A DNA stretch of 64,000 bases. It comes from Candidatus Methanophagaceae archaeon (lineage in GTDB: Archaea > Halobacteriota > Syntropharchaeia > Alkanophagales > Methanospirareceae). The stretch's first letter is position 1. Each line of letters starts with the position of its first letter. Below the pieces are notes generated by a model. It was not told the origin of the DNA. It did no database searches and was given only the letters and a program-made list of their open reading frames with translations. Shown here one piece after another: positions 19,873 to 62,973 of the stretch. The translations under genes and the position numbers were made by a program. The stretch spans positions 135,265 through 199,264 of the forward strand of contig PQXB01000001.1 in NCBI GenBank assembly GCA_003194425.1, in the 5' to 3' direction.

Positions 19873-20625
19873 TTACCTCCTCTTCAAGCCCACACCAGCG
19901 AGCAGCCCGAAGAACAGCCCTGCCAAATGCGCCGTAAACGCAATCGGGTAGGCAGAGCCAATCATTAAGAAATTGAGCACCGCAAAAAGAATAACTACCA
20001 TCCACATCTCCAACGGCACCGGCAACGGAAAAATATACATCCGCATCCTCGGCATCAGCACCGCAAGCGCTCCGAAAACGCCGTACAACGCTCCGCTCGC
20101 TCCAAGCGACGGGTTAATCGCGGTTAGACCGTACACAAGCCCTGCAAAGATTCCCGAGCCGAAGAAGACGAGCAGGAACTTTGAACTGCCGATTTTTCGC
20201 TCCAGCACCGGCCCGAAGAAGACCAAAAAAAACATGTTGAAGAAAAGGTGCCAGAGACCGCCGTGTAGGAAAACGTGCGTTACCAGCGTCCAGGGTCGCT
20301 CTGAAATGTGTGCTGGCATCAAAACCAACTGCCTCTCGTAGCCCGGAACGAGTAGTTGCAGAGCGAAAGAGGCGGAAATGAGGAGCAGGAGCAGGTAAGA
20401 GTAGTTGTGAGAAAAAACGCCAAAATTCGTGCCAAAGTTCTTTCGAATTTCTTTTTTGTTTTCTTTTCTGCGTACCTCATCAAACCCAGACCCGACGCAC
20501 CAGTGCTTCTCGGGTGGCAGGTGCTCCTCGCAGAGGCTGTCGCCGCAGTATTTGCATTTCTGGGTCGCGGGTCTGCCGCAGACCGTGCACCGTGCTCGTG
20601 TTGCTCGTGTCGTCGTGCGTACCAT
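19873..20625 (-). CDS. Rhomboid family intramembrane serine protease with N-terminal zinc ribbon
   Basis: CTVCGRP...CKYCGDSLCEEH zinc ribbon; rhomboid GASGALYGVFG (Ser) and AHLAGLFFG (His). Confidence 0.7.
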   Translation of the reverse strand: MVRTTTRATRARCTVCGRPATQKCKYCGDSLCEEHLPPEKHWCVGSGFDEVRRKENKKEIRKNFGTNFGVFSHNYSYLLLLLISASFALQLLVPGYERQLVLMPAHISERPWTLVTHVFLHGGLWHLFFNMFFLVFFGPVLERKIGSSKFLLVFFGSGIFAGLVYGLTAINPSLGASGALYGVFGALAVLMPRMRMYIFPLPVPLEMWMVVILFAVLNFLMIGSAYPIAFTAHLAGLFFGLLAGVGLKRR

Positions 20626-20652
20626 TTTATTTTAAAAAGGGTAGTTTTTTAT

Positions 20653-21924
20653 TTAAACCTTGACCTCGCCCACCAAATAACCGCTCCTCGCCTCCGCTAC
20701 CCGCACCTTACAAGTAGCACCGAGTGCAGGAGGCGGTTCCGACTTTACCACGACCGTCCTGTACAAAGCGTCTCTTGCAACTACGCCCCCTCTCTTTCCC
20801 TTCTCGGTCACTAAAACCCGCAGCACCGTTCCCTCTAATTCTTTGTTCTTTGCGAGTGCAAGCCTGCGACACGCTGCGGAGAAAATTCTCGACCGCCGCT
20901 TCTTCTCCCGCTCAAGCAAGTCCTTCAGCCCCGCCGCTTCTGTCCCTGGTCTCGGCGAGAACCTCGTCACGTTCACCCTCTCCGGCTTCACCGCCCCCAA
21001 CAAATCCAGCGACGCAACAAAATCCGCCTCGGTCTCAGTGGGGAAACCAACGATGAAATCCGTACACACAGTGCAGTCTTCAAACCGCCTCCTTATGCTT
21101 TTCACAATTTCAACGAAGTCCGCAGCCTTGTAGTTCCGCCGCATTTCGCCCAGCACCTTGTCCGACCCCGACTGCACAGGGAGGTGAAAGAACTTGAAGA
21201 CCTTCTCGGAGTCAAACGCTTCAAGCAGGTCGTCCAGAATGCGAGCCACCGAAAACGGGTTCATCATTCCCACGCGAATTCTAAAATCGCCTGCCACCTC
21301 CACAGTGGCTACCCGCTCCAGCAACTCAGGAAGTCTTGTCCTCGATCCCACGCCTGCACAACCTTCTCTCCGGTCGTAGCCGTAGGCACTGCAGTCCTGC
21401 GAAGTAATTCTTATTTCTCTCGCACCCCTCGCCACCGCGCTTCGCACCGCTTCGCAGACCTCCTCAGGCTTGCGGCTTCTCAGCTCCCCCCTCGCCCGCT
21501 TTACGATGCAGTAGGAGCAGTTTCCGAGGCAGCCTGTTGAGATTGGAATTACTGCAACCACACCGTCAAACTCAAGTGGCACTTCAACTTCAAAATCAAA
21601 AAGGTCCCGAGGTGTTATCATTTTTACATTCTCTCCCAAAACACTCCTCACTAACTCAGGCTGTGCCGCCGCAATGCAGCCCGCCACGACAACCTCTTTT
21701 CCCTGACCCCGCTCTTTCAACGCCTTCAACGCCTCCAACTCCCTCAACCGCTTTAAGACATTCAATTCCGTCCTCTTCGTTACGGTGCAAGTATTCACGA
21801 CGACAACATCGGCTTCTTCGGCTCCCCCCACCAGCTCGTGCCCCGAGTTTTTAAAAATCGCCCTCATTTTCATCTCGTCGCCGACATTCGCGGTGCAGCC
21901 GAAGGTCTCGATGTGAAATTTCAT
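20653..21924 (-). CDS. mtaB: Radical-SAM methylthiotransferase, MiaB-like archaeal type (MtaB/CDKAL1-like)
   Basis: MKFHIETFGCTAN MTTase N-domain, radical SAM CxxxCxxC (CLGNCSYC), TRAM-like C-terminus. Confidence 0.8.
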   Translation of the reverse strand: MKFHIETFGCTANVGDEMKMRAIFKNSGHELVGGAEEADVVVVNTCTVTKRTELNVLKRLRELEALKALKERGQGKEVVVAGCIAAAQPELVRSVLGENVKMITPRDLFDFEVEVPLEFDGVVAVIPISTGCLGNCSYCIVKRARGELRSRKPEEVCEAVRSAVARGAREIRITSQDCSAYGYDRREGCAGVGSRTRLPELLERVATVEVAGDFRIRVGMMNPFSVARILDDLLEAFDSEKVFKFFHLPVQSGSDKVLGEMRRNYKAADFVEIVKSIRRRFEDCTVCTDFIVGFPTETEADFVASLDLLGAVKPERVNVTRFSPRPGTEAAGLKDLLEREKKRRSRIFSAACRRLALAKNKELEGTVLRVLVTEKGKRGGVVARDALYRTVVVKSEPPPALGATCKVRVAEARSGYLVGEVKV

Positions 21925-21983
21925 CTTTTAACTTTGAGAAAGGGGTAAAGGATAAAAGAGTAAAGGATAAAAAGAGGAGAGGA

Positions 21984-23108
21984 ATGACCCAGACGACGAG
22001 ACGGAAAATTGAGCAGCTCCGAATCTGTGCAGAGCAGGAGGTGGAGGCAGAGGAGGCTACGAGCTGCTTTGCAGACGTTAGGCTCGTTCACGTCGCACTA
22101 CCGGAGATTGACAAGGAGGAAATTGAACTGAAGACCGAGTTCTTGGGCTTCTCGCTCAACTACCCAATAATGATTGCCTCGATGACCGGCGGGCATCCAG
22201 AGACGAAAAGAATAAACGCCGTGCTTGCAGAAGCCGCGGAAACGCTTAGCGTTGGCATTGGCGTTGGCTCGCAGCGGGCGGCGTTGGAAGGAGTAGGAAG
22301 TCAAGAGGACTCTTTCCGTGTGGTTCGGGACACTGCACCCAACGCGTTTGTTTACGCGAACTTGGGTGCTCCGCAGTTGAAGGAGTTTGGGGTTGCGGGT
22401 GTAGAGCGGGTTATTGAAATGGTCGACGCGGACGCAGTCGCAATTCACCTCAACTTCTTGCAGGAGGCGATTCAGCACGAGGGGGACGTGGACGCAGGGG
22501 GGTGTTTGGCGGCGATAAAAGAGGTCTGCGAGGCGGTAAAGAAGCCCGTAATCGCGAAGGAGACGGGTGCGGGGATTAGTTACGGGGTTGCGAAGAAGTT
22601 GCACGAGGCTGGTGTAGCCGCGATTGATGTGGGCGGTTGGGGCGGCACGAGCTTGGCTGCTGCCGAGATTTACCGTGCTAAAGCTGAAGGAGACGAGTTG
22701 AGCGAGCATTTGGGGCGACTCTTCGGCTGGGACTGGGGCATTCCAACAGTGGAGAGCATTTTGGAGTGCTGTGCGGCGCTCTCTGCTCCTGCTCCCGTTC
22801 CCGTTTCTACCCCGGTTCCCGTGGTCGCGACTGGCGGAATTCGAACTGGACTTGACGCTGCGAAGAGCATCGCTCTTGGTGCGAGTCTCTGCAGTGCTGC
22901 TCTGCCGTTCCTGAAGCCTGCGATGAAAAGTGTGGAGGAAGTGGTGAAAAAAATAACCGAAATGGGCGAGGAGTTGAAGGTTGCAATGTTTTTAACGGGC
23001 TGCAGGACTACGGCGGAACTGAAGGGAGCGGAGGTTGTTCTGACAGGGAAGGCGAGAGAGACGGCAGAGCAGCGAGGGTTTTTACGCTCTCTTCTCCGCA
23101 GTCCGTAG
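21984..23108 (+). CDS. fni: Type 2 isopentenyl-diphosphate delta-isomerase
   Basis: FMN-dependent TIM-barrel IDI-2 pattern (IMIASMTGG..., ATGGIRTGLD). Confidence 0.8.
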   Translation: MTQTTRRKIEQLRICAEQEVEAEEATSCFADVRLVHVALPEIDKEEIELKTEFLGFSLNYPIMIASMTGGHPETKRINAVLAEAAETLSVGIGVGSQRAALEGVGSQEDSFRVVRDTAPNAFVYANLGAPQLKEFGVAGVERVIEMVDADAVAIHLNFLQEAIQHEGDVDAGGCLAAIKEVCEAVKKPVIAKETGAGISYGVAKKLHEAGVAAIDVGGWGGTSLAAAEIYRAKAEGDELSEHLGRLFGWDWGIPTVESILECCAALSAPAPVPVSTPVPVVATGGIRTGLDAAKSIALGASLCSAALPFLKPAMKSVEEVVKKITEMGEELKVAMFLTGCRTTAELKGAEVVLTGKARETAEQRGFLRSLLRSP

Positions 23109-28488: not shown

Positions 28489-29439
28489 TTACTCTCCTAC
28501 AAAAGTCCCGTACCTCTTTCTCGCCCATCTCACCAGGACTAAATTCCCGACTATCATCGCTACTCCAATCACCAGTCCAACTACGATTCCGATTACCGCT
28601 GCAGAGTCTCCAGCTGCGGCTTCTAAGTTCGGCAAATACCTTGCAACCTGCATCCCAACGAGCGTCCTCCAATTCTCGAAGAGAATTATCACGCCGAAGG
28701 TCAGTCCAGTGCAGGGACCGCCGAACTTCGCACAAAACGCCGCAATGTCCTTCTGTGTCCGCACGCCGCAGTCAGCGTAGCGCGTTATTTTGCCGTGGTA
28801 GACTACCCGCTTGCCCTCACCGAAAGGTCTGTCCTGGAACTCTCGCTCGGTGCCGTAGTGAATATCGCCTGTAGACGACCCGATTGCCCCGACTGTGATG
28901 CCCCAAATAAAAGCGAGCATCGGCAGAGCGAAGGGGTGGTCCAAACCGGGATTTCCCGAGAGCGTCCCAAGATTGCTCTGAATGTATGCTATCGCCGTAA
29001 TGCAGAGTGTTGCCATAAATCCATGCGTTGCGATTGGCATTATGTGCCCGTACAAGACATCGAGGTAAATCGGTTGCTCGAATCGTTTCTGTGCCGTCGT
29101 CCTGCCCACGTGCGCCGTTACCGAAAAAATCACATGAACTGCTTCGCCGACCACTGCCCCGATGGGAATCGCGATAATCGGGTGCGCCCCTTTGGAGAGC
29201 AGCACCCACGCGATAACGCCCGCTACGGTGCAGTAGAGTGCGTAGGCCGGTGCCTCACCAGAAATCGCCTTGTTGAAGAACCGATGCACTTGTCCTACTT
29301 GTGGTGCCAGTTGCACTTGCGAGTTCGGATTGCTCTGTGACCCAACATCAGACTCGAGGTCCTCAAACATGCACGCTACCAATGCCAAAAAAACTATCAG
29401 CAACATCCACGCAAACAGCATTGCTATTTCTATTGGCAT
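28489..29439 (-). CDS. mtrE: Tetrahydromethanopterin S-methyltransferase subunit E
   Basis: Polytopic ~316 aa, first gene of the operon. Confidence 0.75.
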   Translation of the reverse strand: MPIEIAMLFAWMLLIVFLALVACMFEDLESDVGSQSNPNSQVQLAPQVGQVHRFFNKAISGEAPAYALYCTVAGVIAWVLLSKGAHPIIAIPIGAVVGEAVHVIFSVTAHVGRTTAQKRFEQPIYLDVLYGHIMPIATHGFMATLCITAIAYIQSNLGTLSGNPGLDHPFALPMLAFIWGITVGAIGSSTGDIHYGTEREFQDRPFGEGKRVVYHGKITRYADCGVRTQKDIAAFCAKFGGPCTGLTFGVIILFENWRTLVGMQVARYLPNLEAAAGDSAAVIGIVVGLVIGVAMIVGNLVLVRWARKRYGTFVGE

Positions 29440-29490
29440 AACGAAAAATATAGGGACGCCTCTTTAAAAGGTTTTCTATTTTTTTACGCT
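29440..29490 (-). promoter_or_regulatory. Possible promoter/leader of the mtr operon (TATA-like TTTAAAG about 27 nt upstream of the mtrE ATG)
   Basis: 51-nt AT-rich gap. On the coding strand: ...aaaaatagaaaaccttttaaagaggcgtccctatatttttcgtATG. Confidence 0.3.
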
Positions 29491-30987
29491 TCAAACTTCC
29501 AAGCCCTCCAGAATCTCTGCGAATTTCCTGTCCGCGTTCCTCTTTTTCAGCTTTGCGAGCTTCACAATCTCGCTCTTGTCCACTCCAAATTCTCCCCCGC
29601 GAACGAACTCGGTCGCGTCCAAAAGCCGCTTCCCCACCCGAGACCGCACGACAACCGTCGAAAAGCCGTCTGGACTCCCGACCGAGCCGACCGAGATGTC
29701 TGCGAGCCGCGAGACGAAGTCGTCGCAGTAGGGACAGCCCTCCCGCACAACTCCCTCCAACTCCCGCACGTCGCAGGAAAAAACCTCTCCGTCCGCTGCG
29801 GTGACGATGAACTTCCCTTTTGTAATTTGCGTCTTCTCTGCGCGGTCGAGGTCAACGCCGAACCGCCGCCTCGTCTCCTCCTTCAGACCCTCGTAGTCAA
29901 AACTCTCAAGGCAGAACAAGCCCAGCACCGTGATTTCTGCCCCCGGGAATTCTCGTTCCAATTTCCGTACCGCTCTGACCTCGCAGGGCGTTCCTACGAC
30001 CGCAAGTCGCCTCTTGCTCTTGCTCTTACCCCCCTTTTCTTCCTCTTCCAACGCTCCTTCTTTCAACGCAGCCGCAATCTTTGAAACCATCGGGACACGC
30101 AGGTATTTCGTCCCGCTCGCGCTTCTCACCCCTGCCGCGTCCTCAACCACGACCGCCTCTGCCTTGTAGCCCTCTCCCCGCTGCACCACGACCGCGCTGT
30201 CAAAAAAACCGTTCTCCAGCCCTGCGACGAGCAGAGCCGAGACCATTCCTCCGTCCTGCCCTTGCACAACTGAACTCTTAGCCGCGACCAAATCGCTGTA
30301 AACGCCCAGTGCCTCGTCTCGCTTACTCCCTGCCCCTAAATCCAAGAACCTGTTTTCAATTTCCCGCTCGTCCTCCGCGGTCGTCGGAAAAATATTCTTC
30401 GCCAATTTTATCGCTTCTGTGGGGCAGACGAGAGCACACGAGCCACAACCCACGCAGTCGTCGGAGGGCTCTTTGTACGGCGTGCCGACCTCCCGCTCCA
30501 CGCCACGACCCAGAACATTTATCGCCGAGACGCCGACCAACTCCTCGCAGACCCGCGTGCACAACCCGCAGAGAATGCAGTGCTCCTCTGCTTCGTCCTT
30601 TTTCGCTGCCAACTCCAGCCTGAATCTCGGCTTCCCCTCTCCCTCTCTCACCCCGTACTCCCTCGCCAGACTTTGAATTCTGCCCTCCCCAGGACACCTC
30701 GCGAGCAGCAGTTCCAGGAGCATTTTCCTTACTTCGACGACCTCTGGAGATTTGGTCTTTACCACCAGCCCCTCCTCGGCAGGGTAGTTGCAGGCGGTGA
30801 CAATTTTCTTCCTGCCTCTCCCTCCTCGCCACTCAATCTCAACCGAGCAGAGCCGACAAGCGCCAAACGGCTCCAACGCGGGGTGGTAGCACAAAGTCGG
30901 AATTTCAATGCCAACGCTTCTCGCCGCGTCCAATAAGGTAGCTCCTTCCTCTATTTCCACTACCTCCCCGTCAATTTCTAATTTCAT
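29491..30987 (-). CDS. Fusion protein: NuoG/HydA-type N-terminal [2Fe-2S] + [4Fe-4S] ferredoxin module fused to an FrhB/FdhB-like F420-binding beta subunit
   Basis: N-terminal 2Fe-2S Cys pattern, HCILCGLC and CVGCGSCALVCP clusters. C-terminal FrhB_FdhB N- and C-domains (VVGTPCEVRAV, REGCPYCDDFVSRLADISVGSVG). Confidence 0.7.
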   Translation of the reverse strand: MKLEIDGEVVEIEEGATLLDAARSVGIEIPTLCYHPALEPFGACRLCSVEIEWRGGRGRKKIVTACNYPAEEGLVVKTKSPEVVEVRKMLLELLLARCPGEGRIQSLAREYGVREGEGKPRFRLELAAKKDEAEEHCILCGLCTRVCEELVGVSAINVLGRGVEREVGTPYKEPSDDCVGCGSCALVCPTEAIKLAKNIFPTTAEDEREIENRFLDLGAGSKRDEALGVYSDLVAAKSSVVQGQDGGMVSALLVAGLENGFFDSAVVVQRGEGYKAEAVVVEDAAGVRSASGTKYLRVPMVSKIAAALKEGALEEEEKGGKSKSKRRLAVVGTPCEVRAVRKLEREFPGAEITVLGLFCLESFDYEGLKEETRRRFGVDLDRAEKTQITKGKFIVTAADGEVFSCDVRELEGVVREGCPYCDDFVSRLADISVGSVGSPDGFSTVVVRSRVGKRLLDATEFVRGGEFGVDKSEIVKLAKLKKRNADRKFAEILEGLEV

Positions 30988-32936
30988 CTTCTTCTCTCAC
31001 CTCCACTCCGCACCTTTCTCCTTTCTATTTCCCGCTCCGCTTCAGGCACCGGCGGAGGAACCGGCACGCCAGAAATCTTCTTCACCGCCCTCACCTTCGG
31101 CGGACAAACATCAAAACAAATCCCGCACTTTACGCACTTACTCTGGTCAATTACGTGCACTTTTTTCTTCCCGCCCGAAATCGCACCCTCAGGGCAGTTC
31201 TTCAGGCAAAGCAGACAAGCAACGCACTTCTCCGGCTCGATGTAGTACGAAATCAAGTCCTTACAAAACAACGCAGGACATCTCTTCTCCGCGATGTGCG
31301 CCTCGTACTCGTCCCTAAAGTAGCGGAGCGTGCTCAAGACCGGGTTCGCCGCGGTCGTCCCCAGAGCGCAGAGTGACGCCTTTTTCATCACCTCTCCAAT
31401 CTCCTCGAGCATTTCAATGTCGCCCTCCTTCCCCCTACCCGCCACGACACCCTCCAAAATCTCTCGCATTCTCCTCAAACCCTCTCGGCACGGCACGCAC
31501 TTGCCACACGACTCGTCGCAGAGGAAATCCACGAAGTAGCGCGCCAAATCCACGATGCACGTCTCCTCGTCGATCACGATCATTCCGCCCGAGCCCATCA
31601 TCGAGCCCAGCCTCGTGAGTTCGTCAAAATCAACGGGTGTGTCGAGGAACTGCTCTGGAATTATTCCGCCTGAGGGACCGCCGGTCTGGACGCTTTTGAA
31701 CCGTTTTCCGCCGCGAATCCCTCCCCCGATTTTGTAAATAATTTCACGCAGCGTCGTCCCCATCGGGACCTCCACCAAGCCCGTGTTGTTCACTGTGCCG
31801 ACGAGCGAGAAGATTTTCGTGCCCTTGCTGCCCTCGGTTCCGATTGAGTTGAACCAGTCCGCGCCTTTGGCGATGATTAGCGGCACGTTCGCCCAGGTCT
31901 CGACATTGTTGAGGTTGCTCGGTTTGTCCCAGACGCCGCTCTCGGAGGTGTGGATGTATTTTGGTCGTGGTTCGCCGACTTTTCCCTCGATCGCATTCAT
32001 CAAGGCACTGGACTCACCGGAGACGAAGGCACCCGCACCCCTGTGCACTTTCACATCGAAATTGAAGCCCGAGCCCAGAATATTCTCGCCAAGAAATCCG
32101 TACTCCTTCGCCTGCTCGATAGCGACCCCCAGATTTGCGATCGCGATTGGGTATTCCTGTCGCACGTAAACGAAGCCCTGGTGAGAGCCGATTGCGTAAG
32201 CGCCGATTGTCAGCCCCTCGAGGACGCGGTGCGGGTTGCCCTCCATAATTGACCTGTCCATATAAGCACCCGGGTCGCCCTCGTCGCAGTTTACGATTAC
32301 ATATTTTGGTTCTCCTGCTGCGTTCCGAGTGGTTTCCCACTTCCTGCCAGCGGGAAACCCGCCGCCACCCCTGCCTCGCAAATTCGCTCTCTTCACCTCT
32401 TCCAGCACCTCCTCGGGCGTCTTCTCCTCCAACACCTTCGCTAACGCCTTGTAGCCGCCGAGAGCGAGGTAGTCCTCGATTTTCGTCGGGTCGATCCAGA
32501 GGTTTCCCTTGAAGACGAGGCGGGTCTGGTGCTTGTAGAACGGAATGTCCTGCTCGTGAACGCTTCGTTCGCCGGTGCTGGGCTCGGCGTAAAGCAGCCG
32601 CTCAATAATCCGCTTCCCTTTTATCGTCTCTGAAACAATTTCCGGCACGTCCTCGGGCGTTACTCCAAGGTAGCAAATCTCCTCAGGATAAATCACAAGA
32701 ATCGGACCACGCTCGCAGAACCCGTGGCAGCCCGTCCTCCGAACGCCCACCTGCTCAGTCAGACCTTGCTTCTCCAACTCCTCCTGAATCGCAGCAGCAA
32801 CCGCGTCGCTGCCCGTCGCGTGGCACGCCGTCCCAGAGCAGAGCGTGATGAACGGCTTGTTCAAGTCCCGCCCTGCCACAATCTTTCTTCTCAACTCCCT
32901 CAATTCTTGCCCTGAGTTTAGTCTCGTTCTTGGCAT
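30984..32936 (-). CDS. NuoF/HydB-like NAD(P)H-binding flavoprotein subunit with N-terminal thioredoxin-like [2Fe-2S] and C-terminal 2x[4Fe-4S] ferredoxin domains
   Basis: FMN motif GRGGGGFPAGRKW, NADH motif GAGAFVSGESSALMNAIEG, CGKCVPCREG; C-terminal CVACLLCLKNCP and CVKCGICFDVCP. Confidence 0.8.
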   Translation of the reverse strand: MPRTRLNSGQELRELRRKIVAGRDLNKPFITLCSGTACHATGSDAVAAAIQEELEKQGLTEQVGVRRTGCHGFCERGPILVIYPEEICYLGVTPEDVPEIVSETIKGKRIIERLLYAEPSTGERSVHEQDIPFYKHQTRLVFKGNLWIDPTKIEDYLALGGYKALAKVLEEKTPEEVLEEVKRANLRGRGGGGFPAGRKWETTRNAAGEPKYVIVNCDEGDPGAYMDRSIMEGNPHRVLEGLTIGAYAIGSHQGFVYVRQEYPIAIANLGVAIEQAKEYGFLGENILGSGFNFDVKVHRGAGAFVSGESSALMNAIEGKVGEPRPKYIHTSESGVWDKPSNLNNVETWANVPLIIAKGADWFNSIGTEGSKGTKIFSLVGTVNNTGLVEVPMGTTLREIIYKIGGGIRGGKRFKSVQTGGPSGGIIPEQFLDTPVDFDELTRLGSMMGSGGMIVIDEETCIVDLARYFVDFLCDESCGKCVPCREGLRRMREILEGVVAGRGKEGDIEMLEEIGEVMKKASLCALGTTAANPVLSTLRYFRDEYEAHIAEKRCPALFCKDLISYYIEPEKCVACLLCLKNCPEGAISGGKKKVHVIDQSKCVKCGICFDVCPPKVRAVKKISGVPVPPPVPEAEREIERRKVRSGGERRR

Positions 32937-32943
32937 TTTTCAC

Positions 32944-33435
32944 CTACGCGTACTTTTCTAAAATCCCCGCTACCATCGCGGGCGTAATCTTGCCGTGGTA
33001 ATTCCCGTCAACCACCACCACCGGTCCCATCGCACAGCAGCCCAGACAATTCACCCGCCGCAGACTAAACCGCCTGTCCAGCGTCGTCTCGCCCTCTTTT
33101 ATCCTCAGCCGCTCCTCCAGCCTGTCCAGAATCTTCGGCGCACCACGAACCTGACAGGCAGTGCCAAGACAAACCTGCACCGTGTGGCGACCCGCCGGAG
33201 TCAGGCTCATCGCTTCATAAAAACTCGCCACGCGGTAGATTTTGCTCTTTGGAACTCGCAACCGCTCGCTTATTCGTGCAATCGCCTCTCTTGGAATCCA
33301 GTTGAACTCGCTCTGAATGTCCAGCAGTAACTGAATCAAAAACCCCTCCTCGCCCCGCTCCTTGTAGCCCTCAATTATTTCCTCCACCCTCTCCAACCCT
33401 GTTTCCAACTCGGTTTTCAAGTTTGTTTTTCCCAT
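32944..33435 (-). CDS. NuoE/HydC-like [2Fe-2S] thioredoxin-like subunit
   Basis: C-x4-C...CLGCC pattern (VCLGTACQVRG...VNCLGCCAMGPVVVVDGNYH). Start set at MGKTNL; the longer ORF-track N-terminus is probably untranslated. Confidence 0.6.
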   Translation of the reverse strand: MGKTNLKTELETGLERVEEIIEGYKERGEEGFLIQLLLDIQSEFNWIPREAIARISERLRVPKSKIYRVASFYEAMSLTPAGRHTVQVCLGTACQVRGAPKILDRLEERLRIKEGETTLDRRFSLRRVNCLGCCAMGPVVVVDGNYHGKITPAMVAGILEKYA

Positions 33436-33531
33436 TTGTTTAAATGAGTGTTTGGAACAGTTTATAAATTTTGCGGTTTTTTCTGATTTGACGGCTTTAG
33501 ATTTGACGGCGAAAGAAGGGAAAGCGGGAAA

Positions 33532-34359
33532 ATGACACGGGGCTACGTAACCGAAATGTTCAGCTCCTTCCAGGGTGAAGGACCCTACGCAGGCAGGAGG
33601 CAGGTCTTTCTTCGGTTTGCGGGCTGTCCCCTCTCTTGTTTTTACTGCGACACCGCCTACGCAAGAGAGCCCAGACCAAAGTTCTGCAACCTGCTCCGCC
33701 CTGACAAGAAGACCCGCAAAAGAAACCCGCTGTCCGCGAGCGAGGTGCTGGACTGCGTAAAAGCGCTGCTCTCTCCCGACCTGCACAGCGTCTGCTACAC
33801 CGGCGGCGAGCCGCTCACACCGTCTTCCGCGGGGTTCGTAAAAGAAATTGCAAACGCGGTAAAAGAGACGGGGCTAAGGAATTTTTTAGAGACGAGTGGG
33901 TGCTCGGCACGGGCGTTCGCGTCTTTAGCCGACTGCTTTGACTTCGCTTCGGTTGACATAAAACTGCGGGGTCACCAAGCGGTGCAGGGGGAAGACAGCT
34001 ACGAGGCGTTGTACAGGAACGAGCTTGAGTGCGTAAGAATCGCGGTTGAGCGGGGTGTAGAGACGGTGGTGAAGGTGGTAGTGCTAAAGGGCACGCCCGC
34101 GGCGGAAATCGAAGAAATCTGCAGAGACCTTTCGGGGTTTGAATTTGGGTTAGAGGAGAGAGGAAGGGGCAGGGAAAAGGGTAGGGGAAGGGGCAGGGAA
34201 AAGGGTAGGGTAAAGTTTGTGTTGCAGCCTGTTACTGCTCCGCGGTCGGGGGCAGTGCCGAGCACAGAGGAACTCTTTGAACTTTCCGAAGTGGCGGGGC
34301 GGTTCTTACGCGATGTTGCGGTGATTCCGCAGGTGCATAAATTTTTGGGAGTTTTATGA
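33532..34359 (+). CDS. queE: 7-carboxy-7-deazaguanine synthase (radical SAM) with a (GRGREKGR)-type repeat insertion
   Basis: FLRFAGCPLSCFYCDT radical-SAM cluster motif typical of QueE. 27-nt x2 repeat at ~34150-34215. Confidence 0.75.
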   Translation: MTRGYVTEMFSSFQGEGPYAGRRQVFLRFAGCPLSCFYCDTAYAREPRPKFCNLLRPDKKTRKRNPLSASEVLDCVKALLSPDLHSVCYTGGEPLTPSSAGFVKEIANAVKETGLRNFLETSGCSARAFASLADCFDFASVDIKLRGHQAVQGEDSYEALYRNELECVRIAVERGVETVVKVVVLKGTPAAEIEEICRDLSGFEFGLEERGRGREKGRGRGREKGRVKFVLQPVTAPRSGAVPSTEELFELSEVAGRFLRDVAVIPQVHKFLGVL

Positions 34360-35764: not shown

Positions 35765-37033
35765 ATGTTTGAGTTGCGAGCGGGCGAGAAGGAAATTCAG
35801 ACCGCGGCGGGGCGGTTTGCGGAGGCGGAGGTCGCGCCGAGAGCGGCGGAAATCGACCGAAAGGCGAAGTTCCCGCGGGTGCTCGTGCGGAAAATGGCAG
35901 AGCAGGGGCTCTTTGGAATTCCGTTCCCAAAGAAATACGGCGGGGCAGGAGCGACTTTAACGAGCTACGTTGCCGCGGTAGAGGAGCTCTCGAAGGCGAG
36001 TGCGAGCGTTGGTTTCCTGAGTGCTGCGGGGCTTATTTCCGCGTTCCCTTTTCTCTACGCAGGCACAGAGGAGCAGAAAGAGAAATTCCTTCGACCCCTG
36101 TGTTTAGGAGAGAAGCAGGGGGCTTTTGCTTTAACTGAGCCGTCTGCTGGGTCTGACCCGCTCTCCATCAAGACAACTGCGGTTCGAGAAGGCGAAGGCG
36201 GTGGTAGAGGGGGAGGCAAGGATGAATTTGTGCTGAACGGGCGGAAGGCGTTTGTCACTAACACCGCGGTCGCAGACATTTACTTGGTCTTCGCACAGAC
36301 AGAGAAGGGTAGAAAGGGTGAGGAGAAGAGCGGAGAGAGAGAGAAGAGCGGAGTGAGAGAGAAGAGCGGAGTGAGAGAGAAGAGGAGAGAAGGAGGGAGG
36401 GGGGGAGGTTTGAGTGCGTTTGTCGTTGAGAAGGGGACGAAGGGCTTCTCGTTCGCTAAAATCGAGGAGCTGCTGGGAATGCGAGGCTGTCTCGTTGGCG
36501 GGCTGACTTTCGACGACTGCAGAGTTCCCGCGGAGAACCTGCTCGGGAAAGAGGGCGACGGGTTCAGGATCGCGATGGCGACGCTGGACAGGGACAGAAT
36601 CGCGATGAGTAGCATCGGCGTCGGCGTTGCTCAAGCCTGCCTCGACGCCTCAAAGAAGTACGCAAAAGAGCGGAGGCAGTTCGGACAGCCAATCGCAAAC
36701 TTCCAAGCAGTCCAGTTTATGCTCGCTGACATTGCTGTGGAGACTGAGGCAGCGCGGCTACTCACCTACAAAGCCGCTTCTCTCGCAGACAAAGGCGACG
36801 GAAGAAAAGGCGGAGGAGCGGAGAAAATCACGAAAGAGGCGGCGATGGCGAAGCTCTACGCCTCGGAAGTTGCCCAGCGGGCTGCCACAAACGCAGTTCA
36901 GATTCACGGCGGGTTCGGCTGCACGAAGGACTGCCCCGCGGAACGGTATTTCCGGGACGCACGGGTGCTCGGCATCGCGGTAGGGACTTCAGAGATTCAG
37001 CGGCTCGTGATCGCGAGGGAAGTGCTGAGGTAA
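35765..37033 (+). CDS. Acyl-CoA dehydrogenase with a low-complexity insertion in the middle domain
   Basis: ACAD N-, middle and C-domain motifs (AFALTEPSAGSD, QIHGGFG). 21-nt x3 repeat at ~36326-36385. Confidence 0.8.
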   Translation: MFELRAGEKEIQTAAGRFAEAEVAPRAAEIDRKAKFPRVLVRKMAEQGLFGIPFPKKYGGAGATLTSYVAAVEELSKASASVGFLSAAGLISAFPFLYAGTEEQKEKFLRPLCLGEKQGAFALTEPSAGSDPLSIKTTAVREGEGGGRGGGKDEFVLNGRKAFVTNTAVADIYLVFAQTEKGRKGEEKSGEREKSGVREKSGVREKRREGGRGGGLSAFVVEKGTKGFSFAKIEELLGMRGCLVGGLTFDDCRVPAENLLGKEGDGFRIAMATLDRDRIAMSSIGVGVAQACLDASKKYAKERRQFGQPIANFQAVQFMLADIAVETEAARLLTYKAASLADKGDGRKGGGAEKITKEAAMAKLYASEVAQRAATNAVQIHGGFGCTKDCPAERYFRDARVLGIAVGTSEIQRLVIAREVLR

Positions 37034-41831: not shown

Positions 41832-42089
41832 CAACTTCCTCACGCCGTCTGCCAACCCGTGAGCGTAATTTATGCAGCCGAAGGCGGTAAAGAAATCCCC
41901 TTTTTCAAGGTAGTATTTCGCGTCCTCAAAATATGCCTTCGCAAGGCTCAACACCTCTTCTCTTGCTCCTGCAGCACTCGCAGCACCTGCAGCACTCGCA
42001 GCACCTGCAGCACTCGCAGCACCAAGCGACAACGCTTCAAAAAGTGCGATGTCTTTCTTTATCCTACCCGCTTCTTCGTTCAACTTCAC
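41793..42089 (-). CDS. DUF357-like small archaeal protein with an (AASAAG)3 repeat
   Basis: FTAFGCINYAHGLAD motif. 18-nt x3 repeat at ~41965-42020. Convergent 39-nt overlap with the presenilin gene. Confidence 0.4.
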   Translation of the reverse strand: MKLNEEAGRIKKDIALFEALSLGAASAAGAASAAGAASAAGAREEVLSLAKAYFEDAKYYLEKGDFFTAFGCINYAHGLADGVRKLSSQPNDKPENRT

Positions 42090-43129
42090 GATCCTATTTT
42101 AAGTTGCCACGTCTTATTTTTCTTCCCATTCTTTTTTATAGCATCTTCCTCTTCCAGACCCTTAAACTCTAACAAGAATTCGCGGATCCGCCTCTCCGCC
42201 AATTTCACATATTCTTCGCCTGTCTCGTAGCCAACATAATGGCGTCGGGTTTTTATCGCCGCTATTCCCGTCTGCCCGCTCCCCGCGAAAGGGTCTAAAA
42301 CAACCTCGCCCTCGAAGGTGTAAAGTTGAATCAGCCTGTAAGGAAGTTCCACAGGGAACGGTGCTGGGTGTCCAACCCTACGAGCAGATTCCGCAGGGAA
42401 CGTCCAAACGCTTTTAGTAAACTCAAGAAACTCCTCCTTTGAGATTGTGCTTTTTCTTCTTCTTTTCTCGTTCTTGCTCTCTCCTCGGCTAAACCCGCTT
42501 TTAGAAAAGACCAAAATATATTCGTGAATGTCCCGCAGCGTGGGATTAGCAGCAGAAAGCCAGCTCCCCCACGCCGTTGAAGGGCTCGCACTCGCGGCTT
42601 TGTTCCAAATGATTTCCCCTCGCATCAAAAACCCTAAACCGAGCAGGTCCTCAAGCACAAAAGCGTGAAGAGGAATGTACGGCTTTCTTTCTAAATTCGC
42701 GATGTTTACGCAGGCTCTACCGCCGGGCACGAGCACCCTGAAGACCTCTTTCCAAACCGTTCTTAAAAAATTTCTGTATTCTTCAAGCGTTAAATTTTCG
42801 TCGTATTCTTTGCCCGCGTTGTAGGGCGGCGAAGTGACCATTAAATGAACGCTGTCATCTGGCAACTCGTCCATCTGTTCGCTCGATTTACAGAAGATTT
42901 TATCCAACAACTGCGGTGGAATGCGATTTTCCAGAAATTGCACTTTCTTTTCTTTTTCCCCTGGCAAACTTTCGTATAATTTGCTGGCATAAAACGCGGT
43001 GGAATTATGATTTATTCGACCGGGCGAGCCAAACGAGCTTGTTTGCGTCCCTCTTTTTCTTTGACTGTTTGTCATTGTATAATAAAGAGGATTTTGAAAA
43101 ACCCCCGAAAACGAGTGAAAATGCCACAA
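42086..43129 (-). CDS. Beta-class DNA methyltransferase (N4-cytosine or N6-adenine), apparently orphan
   Basis: Motif IV SPPY (VTSPPYNAG) precedes motif I DPFAGSGQTG. 4-nt overlap with the downstream DUF357 gene. Confidence 0.8.
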   Translation of the reverse strand: MWHFHSFSGVFQNPLYYTMTNSQRKRGTQTSSFGSPGRINHNSTAFYASKLYESLPGEKEKKVQFLENRIPPQLLDKIFCKSSEQMDELPDDSVHLMVTSPPYNAGKEYDENLTLEEYRNFLRTVWKEVFRVLVPGGRACVNIANLERKPYIPLHAFVLEDLLGLGFLMRGEIIWNKAASASPSTAWGSWLSAANPTLRDIHEYILVFSKSGFSRGESKNEKRRRKSTISKEEFLEFTKSVWTFPAESARRVGHPAPFPVELPYRLIQLYTFEGEVVLDPFAGSGQTGIAAIKTRRHYVGYETGEEYVKLAERRIREFLLEFKGLEEEDAIKKNGKKNKTWQLKIGS

Positions 43130-43276
43130 AAGTATATAAAGAAGAGAGTGTTACGAGGAGTAAATCAAAATCCTCTAAAGTAAAATATTTCGCAGTCTTG
43201 AAATTTCCAAAAGGGGATTTTTGACGAAGCGGTGAAGCGTAGCGAAACCAAATACGCTCTGTTATACGCTGTGTCT

Positions 43277-43465
43277 TTATTGGACTTTCTTAACTTGCTT
43301 CCCCAACAATTTGATATATTCAAGAAAACTTAACCCTTCGAATTCCGCTTCCTTAGCAATAATTTTCCTCGCGATATGAACTTGCTGTAAAGCCGGGTCG
43401 TCTGGGAACTCCGCTTCCACCGCTCTTCTTATTTCCTCAATATCCTTCTCTTTGACCTTGCTCAT
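43277..43465 (-). CDS. Small protein downstream of the PIN gene (possible antitoxin)
   Basis: 62 aa, 15-nt gap to the PIN gene. Confidence 0.3.
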   Translation of the reverse strand: MSKVKEKDIEEIRRAVEAEFPDDPALQQVHIARKIIAKEAEFEGLSFLEYIKLLGKQVKKVQ

Positions 43466-43480
43466 ATTTTCCCCCCCTTC

Positions 43481-43945
43481 CTATAACAATTCCGCAGGTG
43501 TCATAATCTCTATTTGCCTCAGGTTATTTAAAGTATTTACCCTCCTCACTCTGTCTCTCGTTTTTCTCCTTACAATGTGCCTAAAGTTCCAACTCAAAAG
43601 ACAGTCTATCTCGTTTATCGCTGCGATAGCAATATGGTAGGCATCTTCAGGGTAACCCGCGGGAACTGCGTCATAGCGAATATATTCGCTCGCTACCCTT
43701 TCAACGTCGTCAGTTAAAGCGAGGAGTGAAAATTGCGCGACTGCATCCTTCATTTTGCTTCGGAGTTCTATGTCTGGGGTTCGTTCAATCTCGGCAACCG
43801 TAATTTCGGAGATGAAAGTCTCAAAGTTACCTTTTTCCGCGAAAAAAGATTCTGTGAGCGATTTCCTCTCCGGATTCCGCTCATCAAACCGTGCTGAAAT
43901 TACTGAGGTGTCTAAATACACTTTCCCTCTTCTTCTCAGTTTCAC
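43481..43945 (-). CDS. PIN-domain (VapC-like) toxin; GTG start
   Basis: Acidic residues at PIN positions (VYLDTSVI, ...EIE..., ...EDAYHIAIAAINEID...). Confidence 0.55.
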   Translation of the reverse strand: MKLRRRGKVYLDTSVISARFDERNPERKSLTESFFAEKGNFETFISEITVAEIERTPDIELRSKMKDAVAQFSLLALTDDVERVASEYIRYDAVPAGYPEDAYHIAIAAINEIDCLLSWNFRHIVRRKTRDRVRRVNTLNNLRQIEIMTPAELL

Positions 43946-44014
43946 TTTCCTTTACCTCTTAGGCATTGCATAACTTCGGTATCCACTCGAGTTCACACAT
44001 CCTCAAAATAAGTT

Positions 44015-44323
44015 TTATAGTCCCGTTGCATATTTTACACTCCCTAAAAGGTACGGACGAAGTCCGGGTTTCACCGTCCCATAAATTACAAGGTCAACCC
44101 TGCATTTGAATAAATCCTCAAGGAAAAGTTTTAATTCAATGTAATTGTCAAACGTTTTCTTACTCTTCTCAAATTCCACCAGTATGTCTATGTCACTCCC
44201 TCTTCTTTGTTCATTTCTTACATACGAGCCAAATAATCCTATCTCTTTAACACCAAATCTTTTTATTATCGCTTTGCTCTCCTCGATTTTCTTCAATATT
44301 TCGTTTTCGTCCGCTGTTATCAT
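44015..44323 (-). CDS. Minimal nucleotidyltransferase (MNT) antitoxin-type protein
   Basis: LFGSYVRNEQRRGSDIDILVEF NTase motif. Confidence 0.75.
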   Translation of the reverse strand: MITADENEILKKIEESKAIIKRFGVKEIGLFGSYVRNEQRRGSDIDILVEFEKSKKTFDNYIELKLFLEDLFKCRVDLVIYGTVKPGLRPYLLGSVKYATGL

Positions 44324-44452
44324 TTCTTCTTCACCTCTTTGGCAGAGACGGGCATTTTATAGGGCAAAATGTCCAGAAGGACAAGCTACTTAAGTGAGCA
44401 TAGCGTAAACTTGTATTCTTATACTGTGCCACATCTCTTTATTAACCATAAC

Positions 44453-46285
44453 CTATGTGCGATCGATACACGTATATCTAAATTTCTTTTTTACATTCCA
44501 CACTTTCACTACTGCCCATGTTAAGGCAAGGAACCATGCACTTGGTGAGATTATCTTAGCAAGGATAGCTGAGATAATACACACAACAATAAAGAGCCCT
44601 ATTTCGCCACCCATTAAGAATTGTTTTTCTTTTTCGACCTTGGATTTACACATAGCAATTATTTCATTCTCCTTAATTTCATTCTCCTTATCCCTCTCCT
44701 TGTTTTTTACATCTGACTCAACAACACCTAACGCTTTTTTAATTTTGCCAACTTCTGTTAGACATTGATCTTCACGTTTTTTGTCTTCTGCTATATTAAA
44801 CACCTTGCTAAGTGATTCTAAACAATTTACTAATGTAATACTATCGCCGCATTGCTTAGCATAGCCACCAGCTACAAACAATCTTTTCTGAGCTAAATCC
44901 ATTCTACCTTTCCTTAGATAGCATAGCCCCGCAGCGTAGCTGGAAAGTCCAAGACAATAGGGGTCATAGGTTTTTCCAGAAAGCCATGAAGTCCAGAACA
45001 GAGGATCATTCCCCCTCCACTCCCACTCACCCGGAATCTTGGCAACCATCATGCTGAGGCACTCGATTACCTCCCTATGCCGTCCCATATTCATATACCG
45101 ATCTGCGGTTTTTAATAAGGATTCAAGTGCTTTTTCATACTCTTTTAGAACAATCAGCGCAAGCCCATGATTCTTTAGTGCCTTAGTAACAAGCCATGGA
45201 TCATCACTTCCACGGATGATCTTATCTGACTGTGCTGCAATAAAAGTAGCTTCCTCCTTTGATGGGTCAAGAAGAATTATTTCAGAAAAGAAGTTCTTCC
45301 ATGCCATTTCATTGATACCCGAAGCCCACCTGAGTAGGAATTTATTTTGGCGAGTTTTCATTTTATCTTCTTTACCCTGATCATATTTTTCGTCGGCGTC
45401 TTTATCTAAGAGTCTTGCAAAAATACTCTTTTGGTCCGCGCCTACTAATTTACAATTAGGGCATTCGCGACCAAAAGCTTTGATGTTACCTGTTAGGCTG
45501 ACCTCATTATTCCGCAGCACCCAATAAACACCCTTCGCCGTTTTGGCAGTGCTTAGGATTACTGGAAAAATATCATCGTCGTTGCCACTGTATCCTACAA
45601 TTAAAACGGTGTAGGATCTAAAGACGACACGAAGAAGGTCTGAAAGATCTTTTTTTAGATTAAGTCCTGCCAGTCTAAGAGTAAATATTATGCTTGCTTT
45701 TTCGTCTAAAGTGCCATGAAGCTTAACTACGGGCAGGTGTGACTCGTCTGACCCCTTATTATTCAAGGAGTTTAACAAGCCTTGACGCACAGAATTCACA
45801 TAAAGTTTGTATTTATTAAGGCTTACTTTCTCTAATGCTTTCTCTATATATGTATCAAAATTCGTTGTTAGGACAATTGGTATCTTATATTCACGAGCGA
45901 TATATGCGATATTGGAGTGGTTGCAATTGGGTATGCCCATATTCAAAATATCTATAAAACCAAAGAAATTCTCTCGAAGATTACTATGCAAAATTTGACA
46001 GAACAATTCAGGTTTTATTCTTTTTGTACGACAATTAATAAAACTGTGGAAGTCATCAAGTCCGCTGTGTGCACTTTTTGCGGAATCTATTACAAGATCC
46101 ATTAGCTCCTTCGAGAGTGGACAAGAGGAAGGAGGATCCTTAGAAATCCCCGCACCCACAAAGATAACAAGTTCATTCGACTTTGCTTTTTTAAGCTCTT
46201 GAACAGCACTCTCAAGATCAACCAACTCTCTTAATTCATTTTTTACCATATCTTGCCTTTGACAATTATCTTTTTCTTTAATCAT
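44453..46285 (-). CDS. SIR2_2-domain protein with TPR-like helical middle region and 1-2 C-terminal TM helices (candidate NADase effector)
   Basis: SIR2_2 motifs VIFVGAGIS, VLTTNFD, VVKLHGT. C-terminal IGLFIVVCIISAILAKIISPSAWFLALTWAVV. Confidence 0.7.
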   Translation of the reverse strand: MIKEKDNCQRQDMVKNELRELVDLESAVQELKKAKSNELVIFVGAGISKDPPSSCPLSKELMDLVIDSAKSAHSGLDDFHSFINCRTKRIKPELFCQILHSNLRENFFGFIDILNMGIPNCNHSNIAYIAREYKIPIVLTTNFDTYIEKALEKVSLNKYKLYVNSVRQGLLNSLNNKGSDESHLPVVKLHGTLDEKASIIFTLRLAGLNLKKDLSDLLRVVFRSYTVLIVGYSGNDDDIFPVILSTAKTAKGVYWVLRNNEVSLTGNIKAFGRECPNCKLVGADQKSIFARLLDKDADEKYDQGKEDKMKTRQNKFLLRWASGINEMAWKNFFSEIILLDPSKEEATFIAAQSDKIIRGSDDPWLVTKALKNHGLALIVLKEYEKALESLLKTADRYMNMGRHREVIECLSMMVAKIPGEWEWRGNDPLFWTSWLSGKTYDPYCLGLSSYAAGLCYLRKGRMDLAQKRLFVAGGYAKQCGDSITLVNCLESLSKVFNIAEDKKREDQCLTEVGKIKKALGVVESDVKNKERDKENEIKENEIIAMCKSKVEKEKQFLMGGEIGLFIVVCIISAILAKIISPSAWFLALTWAVVKVWNVKKKFRYTCIDRT

Positions 46286-47361: not shown

Positions 47362-47367
47362 CTCCTT

Positions 47368-47853
47368 CTATTCTCTTTGTGCTTTGATAATACTATCGAG
47401 AATAATAGAGCAAATTATCCCTCCTGTATACCCTATACTTGGCGCAAGGAGAAAAAAGATAGTGTTGAATTTTAAAATGCCAATAGCCTCAAGCCATTCT
47501 TGGCCGATATCTTTGTTAATGAAGAATGATAATGCGGCAGAAAGAATAGCTATGTTAGCCATAACTATACAAAACCACCCAATACCAAAGAATTTTGCAG
47601 GTGTCAAGATATCAGAACCCATTGCTGAATAAGATAATACGGAAATACTTGAAAATCCGATTCCGAAGATAACGGCAATCACAGGATAAATCACCAACAA
47701 CATTTTCATTTTATTTTCGTACTCTCCGAGGATCTCCCATGAGTTGCTGATTGTACCTTGAAATATTTCCATTGCAATCCACAATGTTAAGTAGAAAAAG
47801 AACAAGTAGCCAAATATAAAGCCGAAGGTTGATGCTTTACTTATTTTTTGCAT
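47368..47853 (-). CDS. Four-TM membrane protein, hypothetical
   Basis: Hydrophobic throughout; 6-nt gap downstream and 13-nt overlap upstream within the operon. Confidence 0.45.
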   Translation of the reverse strand: MQKISKASTFGFIFGYLFFFYLTLWIAMEIFQGTISNSWEILGEYENKMKMLLVIYPVIAVIFGIGFSSISVLSYSAMGSDILTPAKFFGIGWFCIVMANIAILSAALSFFINKDIGQEWLEAIGILKFNTIFFLLAPSIGYTGGIICSIILDSIIKAQRE

Positions 47854-62969: not shown

Positions 62970-62973
62970 TTTT

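Follow-up and report, generated by a model that had tools for sequence, protein, structure and literature searches.

Three packed, co-oriented genes lie on the minus strand at positions 29491-33435 of the window, by which we mean the whole 64,000 nucleotide (nt) stretch of DNA from a Candidatus Methanophagaceae archaeon that was analysed. Read from the open reading frames (ORFs), they are bfuC, bfuB and a fusion of bfuA with a gene for an FrhB-type protein, and they are considered here as candidates for a soluble electron-bifurcating complex of the HydABC (Bfu) family with F420 as its third substrate. Coordinates and gene order are exactly as an earlier, sequence-only reading of this DNA had described them, including the single 4-nt overlap (ATGA at 30984-30987) between bfuB and the fusion gene. 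The genes and the two parts of the fusion are as follows.

32944-33435, minus strand: bfuC, 163 amino acids (aa), a NuoE/HydC-like thioredoxin-fold [2Fe-2S] subunit
30984-32936, minus strand: bfuB, 650 aa, a HydB-type NuoF-like flavoprotein
29491-30987, minus strand: the whole bfuA-frhB fusion, 498 aa, a NuoG/HydA-type N-terminal Fe-S module joined to an FrhB module for F420 and flavin adenine dinucleotide (FAD)
30373-30987, minus strand: the bfuA N-terminal module, fusion residues 1-205, Pfam Fer2_4 and Fer4 families
29491-30315, minus strand: the FrhB-type F420/FAD module, fusion residues ~225-498, Pfam FrhB_FdhB_N and FrhB_FdhB_C

The Bfu family is defined by a BfuBC core that carries flavin mononucleotide (FMN), B1, a His-bearing B2, B3/B4, B5 and C1 (Schut et al. 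2022). Residue-by-residue mapping found the whole set of cofactor ligands of this core in the window proteins. BfuC matches the Pfam family 2Fe-2S_thioredx (PF01257) at 1.8e-48 and provides C89, C94, C130 and C134 as ligands of the [2Fe-2S] cluster C1, in line with the NuoE-like subunit that had been predicted; its best solved relatives are the C subunits of bifurcating enzymes (7t2r_C, 9mqx_C, 8a6t_C). BfuB contains a partial 2Fe-2S_thioredx domain (residues 27-103), Complex1_51K (1.6e-43), SLBB, NADH_4Fe-4S (9e-34) and two Fer4 domains (564-614). The N-terminal [2Fe-2S] cluster, the FMN/NADH site and the two C-terminal [4Fe-4S] clusters that the sequence-only reading had assigned to a HydB-type subunit were all found: C33, C38, C70 and C74 are the ligands of B5, the motif GRGGGGFP lies at residue 188, and B3/B4 are bound by C571-C581 and C601-C611. 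The ligands of the [4Fe-4S] cluster B1 are C477, C480, C483 and C523. At the B2/Zn site C460, H547, C553 and C558 align with C438, H525, C531 and C536 of Acetomicrobium mobile. A phmmer comparison with the NiFe-HydB of A. mobile (7t2r_B) gave 3.8e-233, and 8a6t_B and 9mqx_B were matched too.

Among the 33 BfuB proteins that are encoded beside FrhB fusions, the B-subunit ligands are invariant (B1 and B2 in 33/33) save for the four cysteines of B5, which are kept in 30-32 of the 33, the exceptions being gaps or single substitutions. A family-specific feature appears at the position of the fifth B2 ligand. This ligand is Cys in the NiFe enzyme (C476 of A. mobile) and Thr in most other Bfu proteins, while the window BfuB has V498 (~31443-31445) and Val is present in 30/33 of the F420-type BfuB. 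The 42 BfuB paired with other types of BfuA have Thr (24), Cys (7), Ser (4) or Val (7) here. With V498 at the fifth position, only a Zn-type site with three Cys and one His is therefore possible. Zn is bound at the B2 site in the structures of FeFe-, Nfn- and Wor-Bfu.

This conservation bears on the main rival to a bifurcating complex, namely that the trio encodes a non-bifurcating soluble F420H2:NAD+ oxidoreductase, which replaces Fno for NAD(H) and in which the extra BfuB clusters are vestigial or serve as an electron reservoir. F420 (-340 to -360 mV) and NAD (-320 mV) are near-isopotential, so that no energetic coupling would be required, and ANME-1, a group of anaerobic methanotrophic archaea (ANME), have no Fno and need some link between F420 and pyridine nucleotides. 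However, strong purifying selection has kept the bifurcation-specific elements fully conserved (the His and Cys of B2 together with B3/B4 in 33/33, B5 in 30-32/33), and known non-bifurcating HydB homologues are without them, the B2-site His included (Schut et al. 2022; cf. Losey 2020). Because all of these elements are conserved in the trio, we disfavour the non-bifurcating enzyme and regard it as unlikely.

An assignment to NuoEFG of complex I does not agree with the model scores. BfuB reached 474 bits with nuoF_fam (cutoff 559) and has extra Fe-S domains at both termini, and the NuoG model matched the fusion with 103 bits (cutoff 470) over residues 3-192 only. The best solved relatives of all three subunits are the A, B and C subunits of enzymes for which bifurcation was demonstrated experimentally: NiFe-HydABCSL of A. 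mobile (7T2R), HydABC of T. kivui (8A6T), WorABCSL (9MQX) and NfnABC of S. ovata (9N5U).

For the fusion protein, the search with hidden Markov models (HMMs) of Pfam and NCBIfam confirmed every domain that had been named: Fer2_4 (residues 2-80), a 2x[4Fe-4S] region (134-195), FrhB_FdhB_N (240-302, 8e-15) and FrhB_FdhB_C (326-458, 3e-38). The description as a NuoG/HydA-type N-terminus fused to FrhB thus stands as far as the domains are concerned, but the His-ligated A3 motif is absent. The sequence His-x3-C-x2-C-x5-C is replaced by LLLARCPGEGRI, and the A3 cluster is missing. The remaining ligands of the N-terminal module, C33, C44, C47 and C66 for the [2Fe-2S] cluster A1 and C137-C147 and C178-C188 for the [4Fe-4S] clusters A2/A4, are invariant in an alignment of 20 sequences of the fusion family. 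The best solved match of this module is WorA (9mqx_A, 2.6e-40), which likewise has no A3, and BfuA proteins with A1, A2 and A4 only are described for clade 45, to which F420-Bfu belongs (Schut et al. 2022). A lone cysteine, Cys98 (~30694-30696), occurs within an invariant A-R-C-P motif at the position of the His-ligated A3/N5 cluster of HydA/NuoG; WorA has Ala at this position.

The FrhB part was mapped by HMMER alignment to FrhB of M. marburgensis (3zfs_C) and also to 9r51_B, with functional residues taken as in Mills et al. 2013 and Allegretti et al. 2014 (PMC3591093, PMC3930138). Cysteines C335, C359, C418 and C421, which are invariant in the 20-sequence alignment, correspond to the FeS ligands C104, C134, C192 and C195 of FrhB. 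The FAD loops are kept as Q244-DGG, G292-TKY(L) and G356-LFCLESF (24-QDGG, G73-T77 and 131-138 in FrhB), and the first two motifs are invariant as well. At the F420 site the turn I388-TKGK-392 matches 163-IGKGK of FrhB (alignment consensus QIxKGK), and the loop residues S435/V436 match S209/V210, with S435 invariant. Most of the FeS, FAD and F420-site residues of FrhB are thus unchanged throughout the alignment, and the FrhB-like domain has not lost its F420/FAD-binding residues. On the basis of these residues and of the F420-dependent metabolism of the host lineage, the FrhB module is predicted to bind F420 and to transfer hydride. Two lineage-specific, low-complexity-like inserts were seen in the fusion (residues ~115-133 and ~312-324); Tandem Repeats Finder (TRF) listed no repeat inside 29491-33435.

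In an AlphaFold2 model of the fusion, the FrhB part superposes on FrhB, Fsr and the subunits of F420-reducing carbon monoxide dehydrogenase (CODH) and Fwd of Ca. Ethanoperedens, as revealed by Foldseek (9r51_B at E 3e-21 with a target template modelling score of 0.76), and matches to FdhB were much weaker. The model has a mean predicted local distance difference test (pLDDT) score of 71, residues 125-200 are below 55, and it was used only to confirm the FrhB fold; the low values cover the 2x[4Fe-4S] domain, and the model is therefore of no use for the geometry from cluster to cluster.

To which FrhB-like group the fusion belongs was judged from the ranking of HMM and structure scores and from the published tree of Chadwick et al. 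2022. The NCBIfam scores stay under the FrhB and FpoF cutoffs (189 vs 269, 164 vs 331 and 148 vs 475 bits). One alternative is a formate dehydrogenase linked to F420/NAD, with the fusion as its FdhB-type subunit and the FdhA gene at another place in the genome: FdhB shares the Pfam families, and Fdh-type Bfu enzymes exist. However, the match to FdhB (65 bits for 8rvu_E; also 7bkb_E) is much weaker than the matches to proteins of the FrhB/Fsr/CODH-zeta type (103-135 bits, with 135 for FrhB), and FrhB8, the label for this family in the tree of Chadwick et al. 2022, stands apart from FdhB (FrhB12). The 64-kb window has no FdhA-sized or molybdopterin ORF, and in the related loci, more than 30 in number, none adjoins the trio. 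The weak FdhB score, the lack of a nearby FdhA gene and the tree placement led us to reject the formate dehydrogenase, which we regard as highly improbable.

The distribution of the genes supports a self-contained unit. A scan of GTDB representative genomes detected 19 loci, nearly all from Methanophagales/ANME-1, plus Ca. Methanolliviera. A search for a protein identical in sequence to the fusion had no match. In metagenomes 498 related stretches were confirmed, a number that includes the N-terminal module in other Bfu types, and 80 of them were kept. Wherever a full-length fusion had enough flanking DNA, bfuC and bfuB adjoin it; the order is C-B-A in more than 30 loci and A-C-B in two. The BfuB proteins from the trio loci group together as one clade when a neighbour-joining tree is built. 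Clustering at 50% identity left about two representatives of the fusion family among 1.84 billion, and the family is therefore narrow and strongly conserved. Between ANME-1, ANME-2, Methanoliparia and Bathyarchaeia-type metagenome-assembled genomes its members keep an identity of 50% or more, and the proteins of the ANME-1 GoMg1 and GoMg2 loci (L004, L016) are 66-86% identical to those of the window.

Conservation of neighbours is also the evidence that bears most directly on a further alternative, in which the trio is a mere electron-input or electron-output module that docks on a partner (Hdr, an Fqo/Fpo arm or a dehydrogenase), or in which the FrhB-like domain uses a substrate other than F420. 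The BfuA N-terminal module does occur elsewhere with FdhA, in fusions with GCV_H or an HdrA-like part and as standalone 245-aa forms beside further genes, the ferredoxin plus FrhB part resembles FpoF (148 bits), and ANME genomes encode many FrhB paralogues attached to different enzymes (Chadwick et al. 2022). Against this, ORF clustering in 41 non-redundant loci revealed no further gene that is universally conserved beside the trio, and fpo, fqo or hdr genes are never directly adjacent. The FpoF model score is far under its cutoff (NF040616, 148 vs 475 bits), separate FpoF/FqoF proteins are encoded by ANME (Chadwick et al. 2022), and the F420-site residues are conserved in the FrhB-like domain. 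We consider both variants of this alternative quite unlikely.

Related modules with other compositions were seen in the same scans. The sister clade of the trio BfuB has a BfuA N-terminus of the same type together with FdhA, a GCV_H fusion, an HdrA-like fusion, a ~590-aa protein or a second, divergent FrhB fusion. This second BfuA-FrhB fusion (L048 2977-4428, L049 1172-2677) has an FrhB part that is ~30% identical to that of the window, and P0142 is 45% identical overall. The BfuB that goes with this second fusion lies apart from the main F420-Bfu clade, a placement that points to an independent fusion or an old split. Environmental contigs encode the A3-less BfuA module with a glycine-cleavage H-protein domain (L087 5148-6446), an HdrA-like Pyr_redox_2 domain (L099 9189-12440), the ~590-aa protein (L052 1926-3704), whose central 300 aa are unannotated and whose C-terminus holds a 2x[4Fe-4S] part, or an adjacent FdhA (L078 8535-11312). 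This variety of partners may represent further Bfu substrate types, as predicted from the sequences.

Upstream of bfuC, and between the fusion gene and the mtr genes that follow it (mtrE, then mtrD, C, B, A and H), these features were read.

33461-33468, minus strand: TATA-box-like TTTATAAA, 25 nt upstream of the bfuC ATG, read by eye
29440-29490, minus strand: 51-nt spacer from the fusion stop codon to the mtrE ATG
29462-29469, minus strand: TATA-like TTTTAAAG in the spacer, read by eye
29444-29448, minus strand: T5 run in the spacer, read directly
28489-29439, minus strand: mtrE, PF04206 match 4e-105

We place the bfuC start at the ATG at 33435, because the TTTATAAA box lies 25 nt upstream and the homologues have lengths of ~150-157 aa; an alternative, longer ORF with a GTG start up to 33786 would overlap a divergent radical-SAM gene. 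The box is likely the putative promoter of a three-gene operon, in which bfuC and bfuB are 7 nt apart and a Shine-Dalgarno-like GGTGA precedes bfuB. Since the spacer holds the TATA-like TTTTAAAG and the T5 run, mtr probably has a putative promoter of its own, and co-transcription with the three-gene module is uncertain. A scan for sigma-70 promoters and intrinsic terminators gave chance-level matches at most; these models are not applicable to archaea, and the TATA-like boxes were judged by eye.

The module does end 51 nt upstream of mtrE, as the sequence-only reading had pointed out, but the position itself has no bearing on function. Adjacency to mtr occurs in the window and in two near-identical contigs (P0001/L020, 98%; L025, a JGI contig, 99%), and was found neither in any of 16 GTDB loci nor in metagenome loci outside the lineage of the window. 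In five ANME-1 loci (L002, L004, L006, L007, L015) a rhomboid gene lies directly 3′ of the fusion gene. It is followed by genes for a MiaB-like radical-SAM protein and FMN_dh in L002, L004 and L015 (e.g., L004 9561-13262), and it was found alone in L006 and L007. The window has this rhomboid/MiaB-like/FMN_dh block in inverted form at 19873-23108, separated from the trio by the mtr operon and by a gene for an ABC ATPase, and the bfu-mtr adjacency is therefore a derived local rearrangement. A functional coupling of the module to Mtr was rejected on these grounds.

A different neighbourhood recurs in more distant relatives. At ~50-56% identity the trio repeatedly adjoins, in both orientations, genes for Mtd, the F420-dependent methylene-tetrahydromethanopterin (H4MPT) dehydrogenase (PF01993), for a 575-585 aa protein with Mpt_N and NAD-binding domains, and for a PhoU-type protein (PhoU/MazE domain). 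Such loci are L021 (1729-5454), L022 (4853-8636), L030, L033 and L045, and in L021 Ftr is encoded ~8 kb away as well. The recurrent adjacency to Mtd indicates a recurrent link with the C1 metabolism of H4MPT, though not via mtr.

Building on the gene architecture, the cofactor ligands, the conservation of the trio and its closest relatives, all of which are established, we propose that the three subunits would assemble into a soluble heterotrimeric Bfu complex, an F420-Bfu, and we put the probability of this at about 0.62. The earlier suggestion of a HydABC-like architecture with F420 as the third partner is supported at this level, all ligands of the BfuBC core and of FrhB being present. The complex would catalyse the reversible reaction 2 F420H2 + NAD+ + Fd(ox) <-> 2 F420 + NADH + Fd(red), where Fd is ferredoxin. 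F420H2 would pass hydride to the FAD of the FrhB module, and single electrons would then move from the [4Fe-4S] cluster of FrhB via A4, A2 and A1, all within one polypeptide, to the BfuBC core (B1, FMN, B5, C1). At the core, two electrons would leave as hydride to NAD+ at FMN, and two low-potential electrons would reach ferredoxin through a swinging C1 domain and B3/B4. With potentials assumed for cell conditions (F420 -340 to -360 mV, NADH ~-280 mV, ferredoxin ~-500 mV), the confurcating direction from NADH and reduced ferredoxin to F420 would be slightly exergonic, and the F420H2 produced would feed the membrane complexes Fqo/Fpo or F420-dependent C1 enzymes. In Ethanoperedens, FrhB-like subunits wire CODH and Fwd to F420 (PMC11493965), and the trio is transcribed in ANME transcriptomes (Chadwick et al. 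2022, S3 data).

Several points weigh against the proposed F420-Bfu. Our literature search for work on the biochemistry or structure of any F420-type Bfu yielded no paper, and two seemingly relevant Methanothrix papers did not mention the complex. The midpoint potentials of F420 and NAD are nearly equal, which makes a simple, non-bifurcating transfer thermodynamically possible. Val at the fifth B2 position sets the family apart from the Thr or Cys of most other Bfu proteins. Some proteins of the FrhB family, such as plant HCAR, do not use F420. Finally, the structural model is unreliable at the ferredoxin-like domain, and so is any distance from the FrhB cluster to A4 that is read from it.

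A more far-reaching and tentative idea is that F420-Bfu might serve ANME-1, and other methane- or alkane-oxidising archaea without Fno, Rnf and Ech, as a central "electron funnel" of their catabolism. Reduced ferredoxin from Fwd and CODH and NADH from a MetF-type methylene-H4MPT reductase or from beta-oxidation would be confurcated onto F420, and the electrons would then enter the energy-conserving F420H2:quinone oxidoreductase. ANME-1 are universally without Fno, and the fate of their pyridine-nucleotide electrons was posed as a question by Chadwick et al. 2022. According to the tables of that study, four ANME-1 genomes are without a complete trio (GoMg4, SA, ERB6 and the single-cell genome L18), and of all the ANME-1 that both tables list, Rnf (and Mvh) is present only in GoMg4 and SA. 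ERB6 and L18, which have neither a complete trio nor Rnf, are probably incomplete genomes. A complementary distribution of trio and Rnf in ANME-1 is possible, in what is a small sample. Archaea without ferredoxin-dependent pumps route the CO2-forming steps to F420, and in ANME-1 extracts no direct F420 reduction by CODH or Fwd was detected (Lemaire et al. 2024). Taken together, the lack of Fno, the pattern of trio and Rnf and the results of Lemaire et al. make the funnel role plausible, though less likely than not; the distant relatives that keep the trio beside F420-dependent Mtd and the NAD-domain Mpt_N protein are suggestive in the same sense. If true, the funnel would answer how pyridine-nucleotide and ferredoxin electrons re-enter the energy metabolism of ANME-1, as asked by Chadwick et al.

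Elsewhere in the window, TRF listed, in 89 rows, short tandem repeats rich in purines or pyrimidines (e.g., 36318-36384, 34162-34215, 2448-2545, 4192-4283 and 62820-62973), most of them with a period divisible by 3. Many lie inside genes and encode low-complexity inserts rich in G, E, K, R and S, among them the genes for acyl-CoA dehydrogenase, a QueE-like radical-SAM protein and eIF2-gamma. A 69-nt tandem repeat of about ten copies (59563-60239, also readable with a 207-nt period) lies within a gene for a 530-aa beta-helix/NosD-type protein (59140-60732). The region 42000-48000 is a low-GC (guanine plus cytosine) island with 37-45% against ~53%, and is probably an acquired defence island with the following genes.

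42086-43129: N6/N4 DNA methylase
44453-46285: SIR2-like protein of 610 aa
46282-47361: ORF of 359 aa that adjoins the SIR2-like gene, no Pfam match

A pair of R.HinP1I-type restriction endonuclease and methylase genes is found separately at 52780-54224. The window also contains two acyl-CoA dehydrogenase genes (35765-37033 and 51286-52560) and a CdhA-like gene (48717-50975). Acyl-CoA dehydrogenases in an archaeon that bears mtr hint at a metabolism of multi-carbon compounds (alkanes or fatty acids). The two Ca. Syntrophoarchaeum genomes in the table of Chadwick et al. 2022 are without the FrhB8 trio.

The module had already been reported in two papers. F420-Bfu (Type 1 BfuABC, BfuB clade 45) was predicted by Schut et al. 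2022 (Front Microbiol 13:946711) from two Methanosaetaceae sequences, with the architecture of the window trio, that is BfuC, a BfuB with all cofactors and a BfuA with A1, A2 and A4 plus an F420-reducing FAD domain, and with the same proposed reaction from NADH and reduced ferredoxin to F420. A biosynthetic role was proposed there, whereas the host of the window is related to ANME-1/Methanophagales, judging from the BfuB tree and the best matches, and the family is widespread in metagenomes. Chadwick et al. 2022 (PLoS Biol 20:e3001508, Fig 16 and S data) described "FrhB8 / NuoF-Trx / Trx" as three consecutive genes and listed them for most ANME-1, many ANME-2a/b, one ANME-2c and Ca. Methanoperedens. 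These are the same three genes as in the window; the paper assigns no function to them, does not recognise the NuoG-type N-terminus or the relationship to Bfu, and reports no genome with the cluster beside mtr. The window trio is thus a further member of a predicted, biochemically uncharacterised enzyme type and is not new as an architecture.

Since the gene set was already described in these two 2022 papers, the value of the window itself is modest. Our analysis adds a residue-level check of every cofactor site with the family-specific Val at the B2 site, the trio as a self-contained, monophyletic and widespread unit, the mtr adjacency as a lineage-specific rearrangement, and the lack of A3 in BfuA, a trait shared with WorA, which bifurcates and whose structure is solved. 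Should the prediction hold, F420-Bfu would be the only known enzyme that joins the F420, NAD(H) and ferredoxin pools of methane-metabolising archaea, and the first bifurcating enzyme of the Bfu type in the central metabolism of anaerobic methane or alkane oxidisers. It would offer a clonable three-gene candidate for an acknowledged gap in the bioenergetics of ANME-1 (no Fno, Rnf or Ech).

Among solved structures, WorABCSL, the tungsten aldehyde oxidoreductase of Acetomicrobium mobile (PDB 9MQX, PNAS 2025), comes closest to the BfuA N-terminal module, and BfuB and BfuC are closely related to it too. Its bifurcation was shown experimentally, and in WorA electrons enter at A4. The third substrate is oxidised on a separate WorSL, which is recruited by a C-terminal helix and a Zn finger of WorA, whereas in the window fusion BfuA and the catalytic FrhB module are joined directly in one polypeptide. 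With FrhB, Fsr and the CODH and Fwd subunits of Ethanoperedens (4OMF, 9R51, 7NP8, 8RIU, 8RJA) the fusion shares the fold (Foldseek E 1e-17 to 3e-21), the FeS cysteines, the FAD loops and the F420-site motifs, and Fsr, FpoF and CODH zeta have, like the window fusion, a ferredoxin-type 2x[4Fe-4S] domain in front of the FrhB domain. The partners in this group are hydrogenase, sulfite reductase, CODH or Fwd, whereas the partner in the window is an NADH/ferredoxin bifurcation core. A functional analogue is Nfn-Bfu, a "transhydrogenase" between cofactor pools with NADPH at mid-range potential: in the Sporomusa-type NfnABC/StnABC (9N5U) and in Nfn-Bfu of Thermococcus sibiricus, BfuA likewise carries a flavin domain for a hydride-carrying cofactor. 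That domain is NfnB/GltD-like, works with NADPH and delivers electrons via A3, whereas the window fusion is without A3 and is predicted to work with F420.

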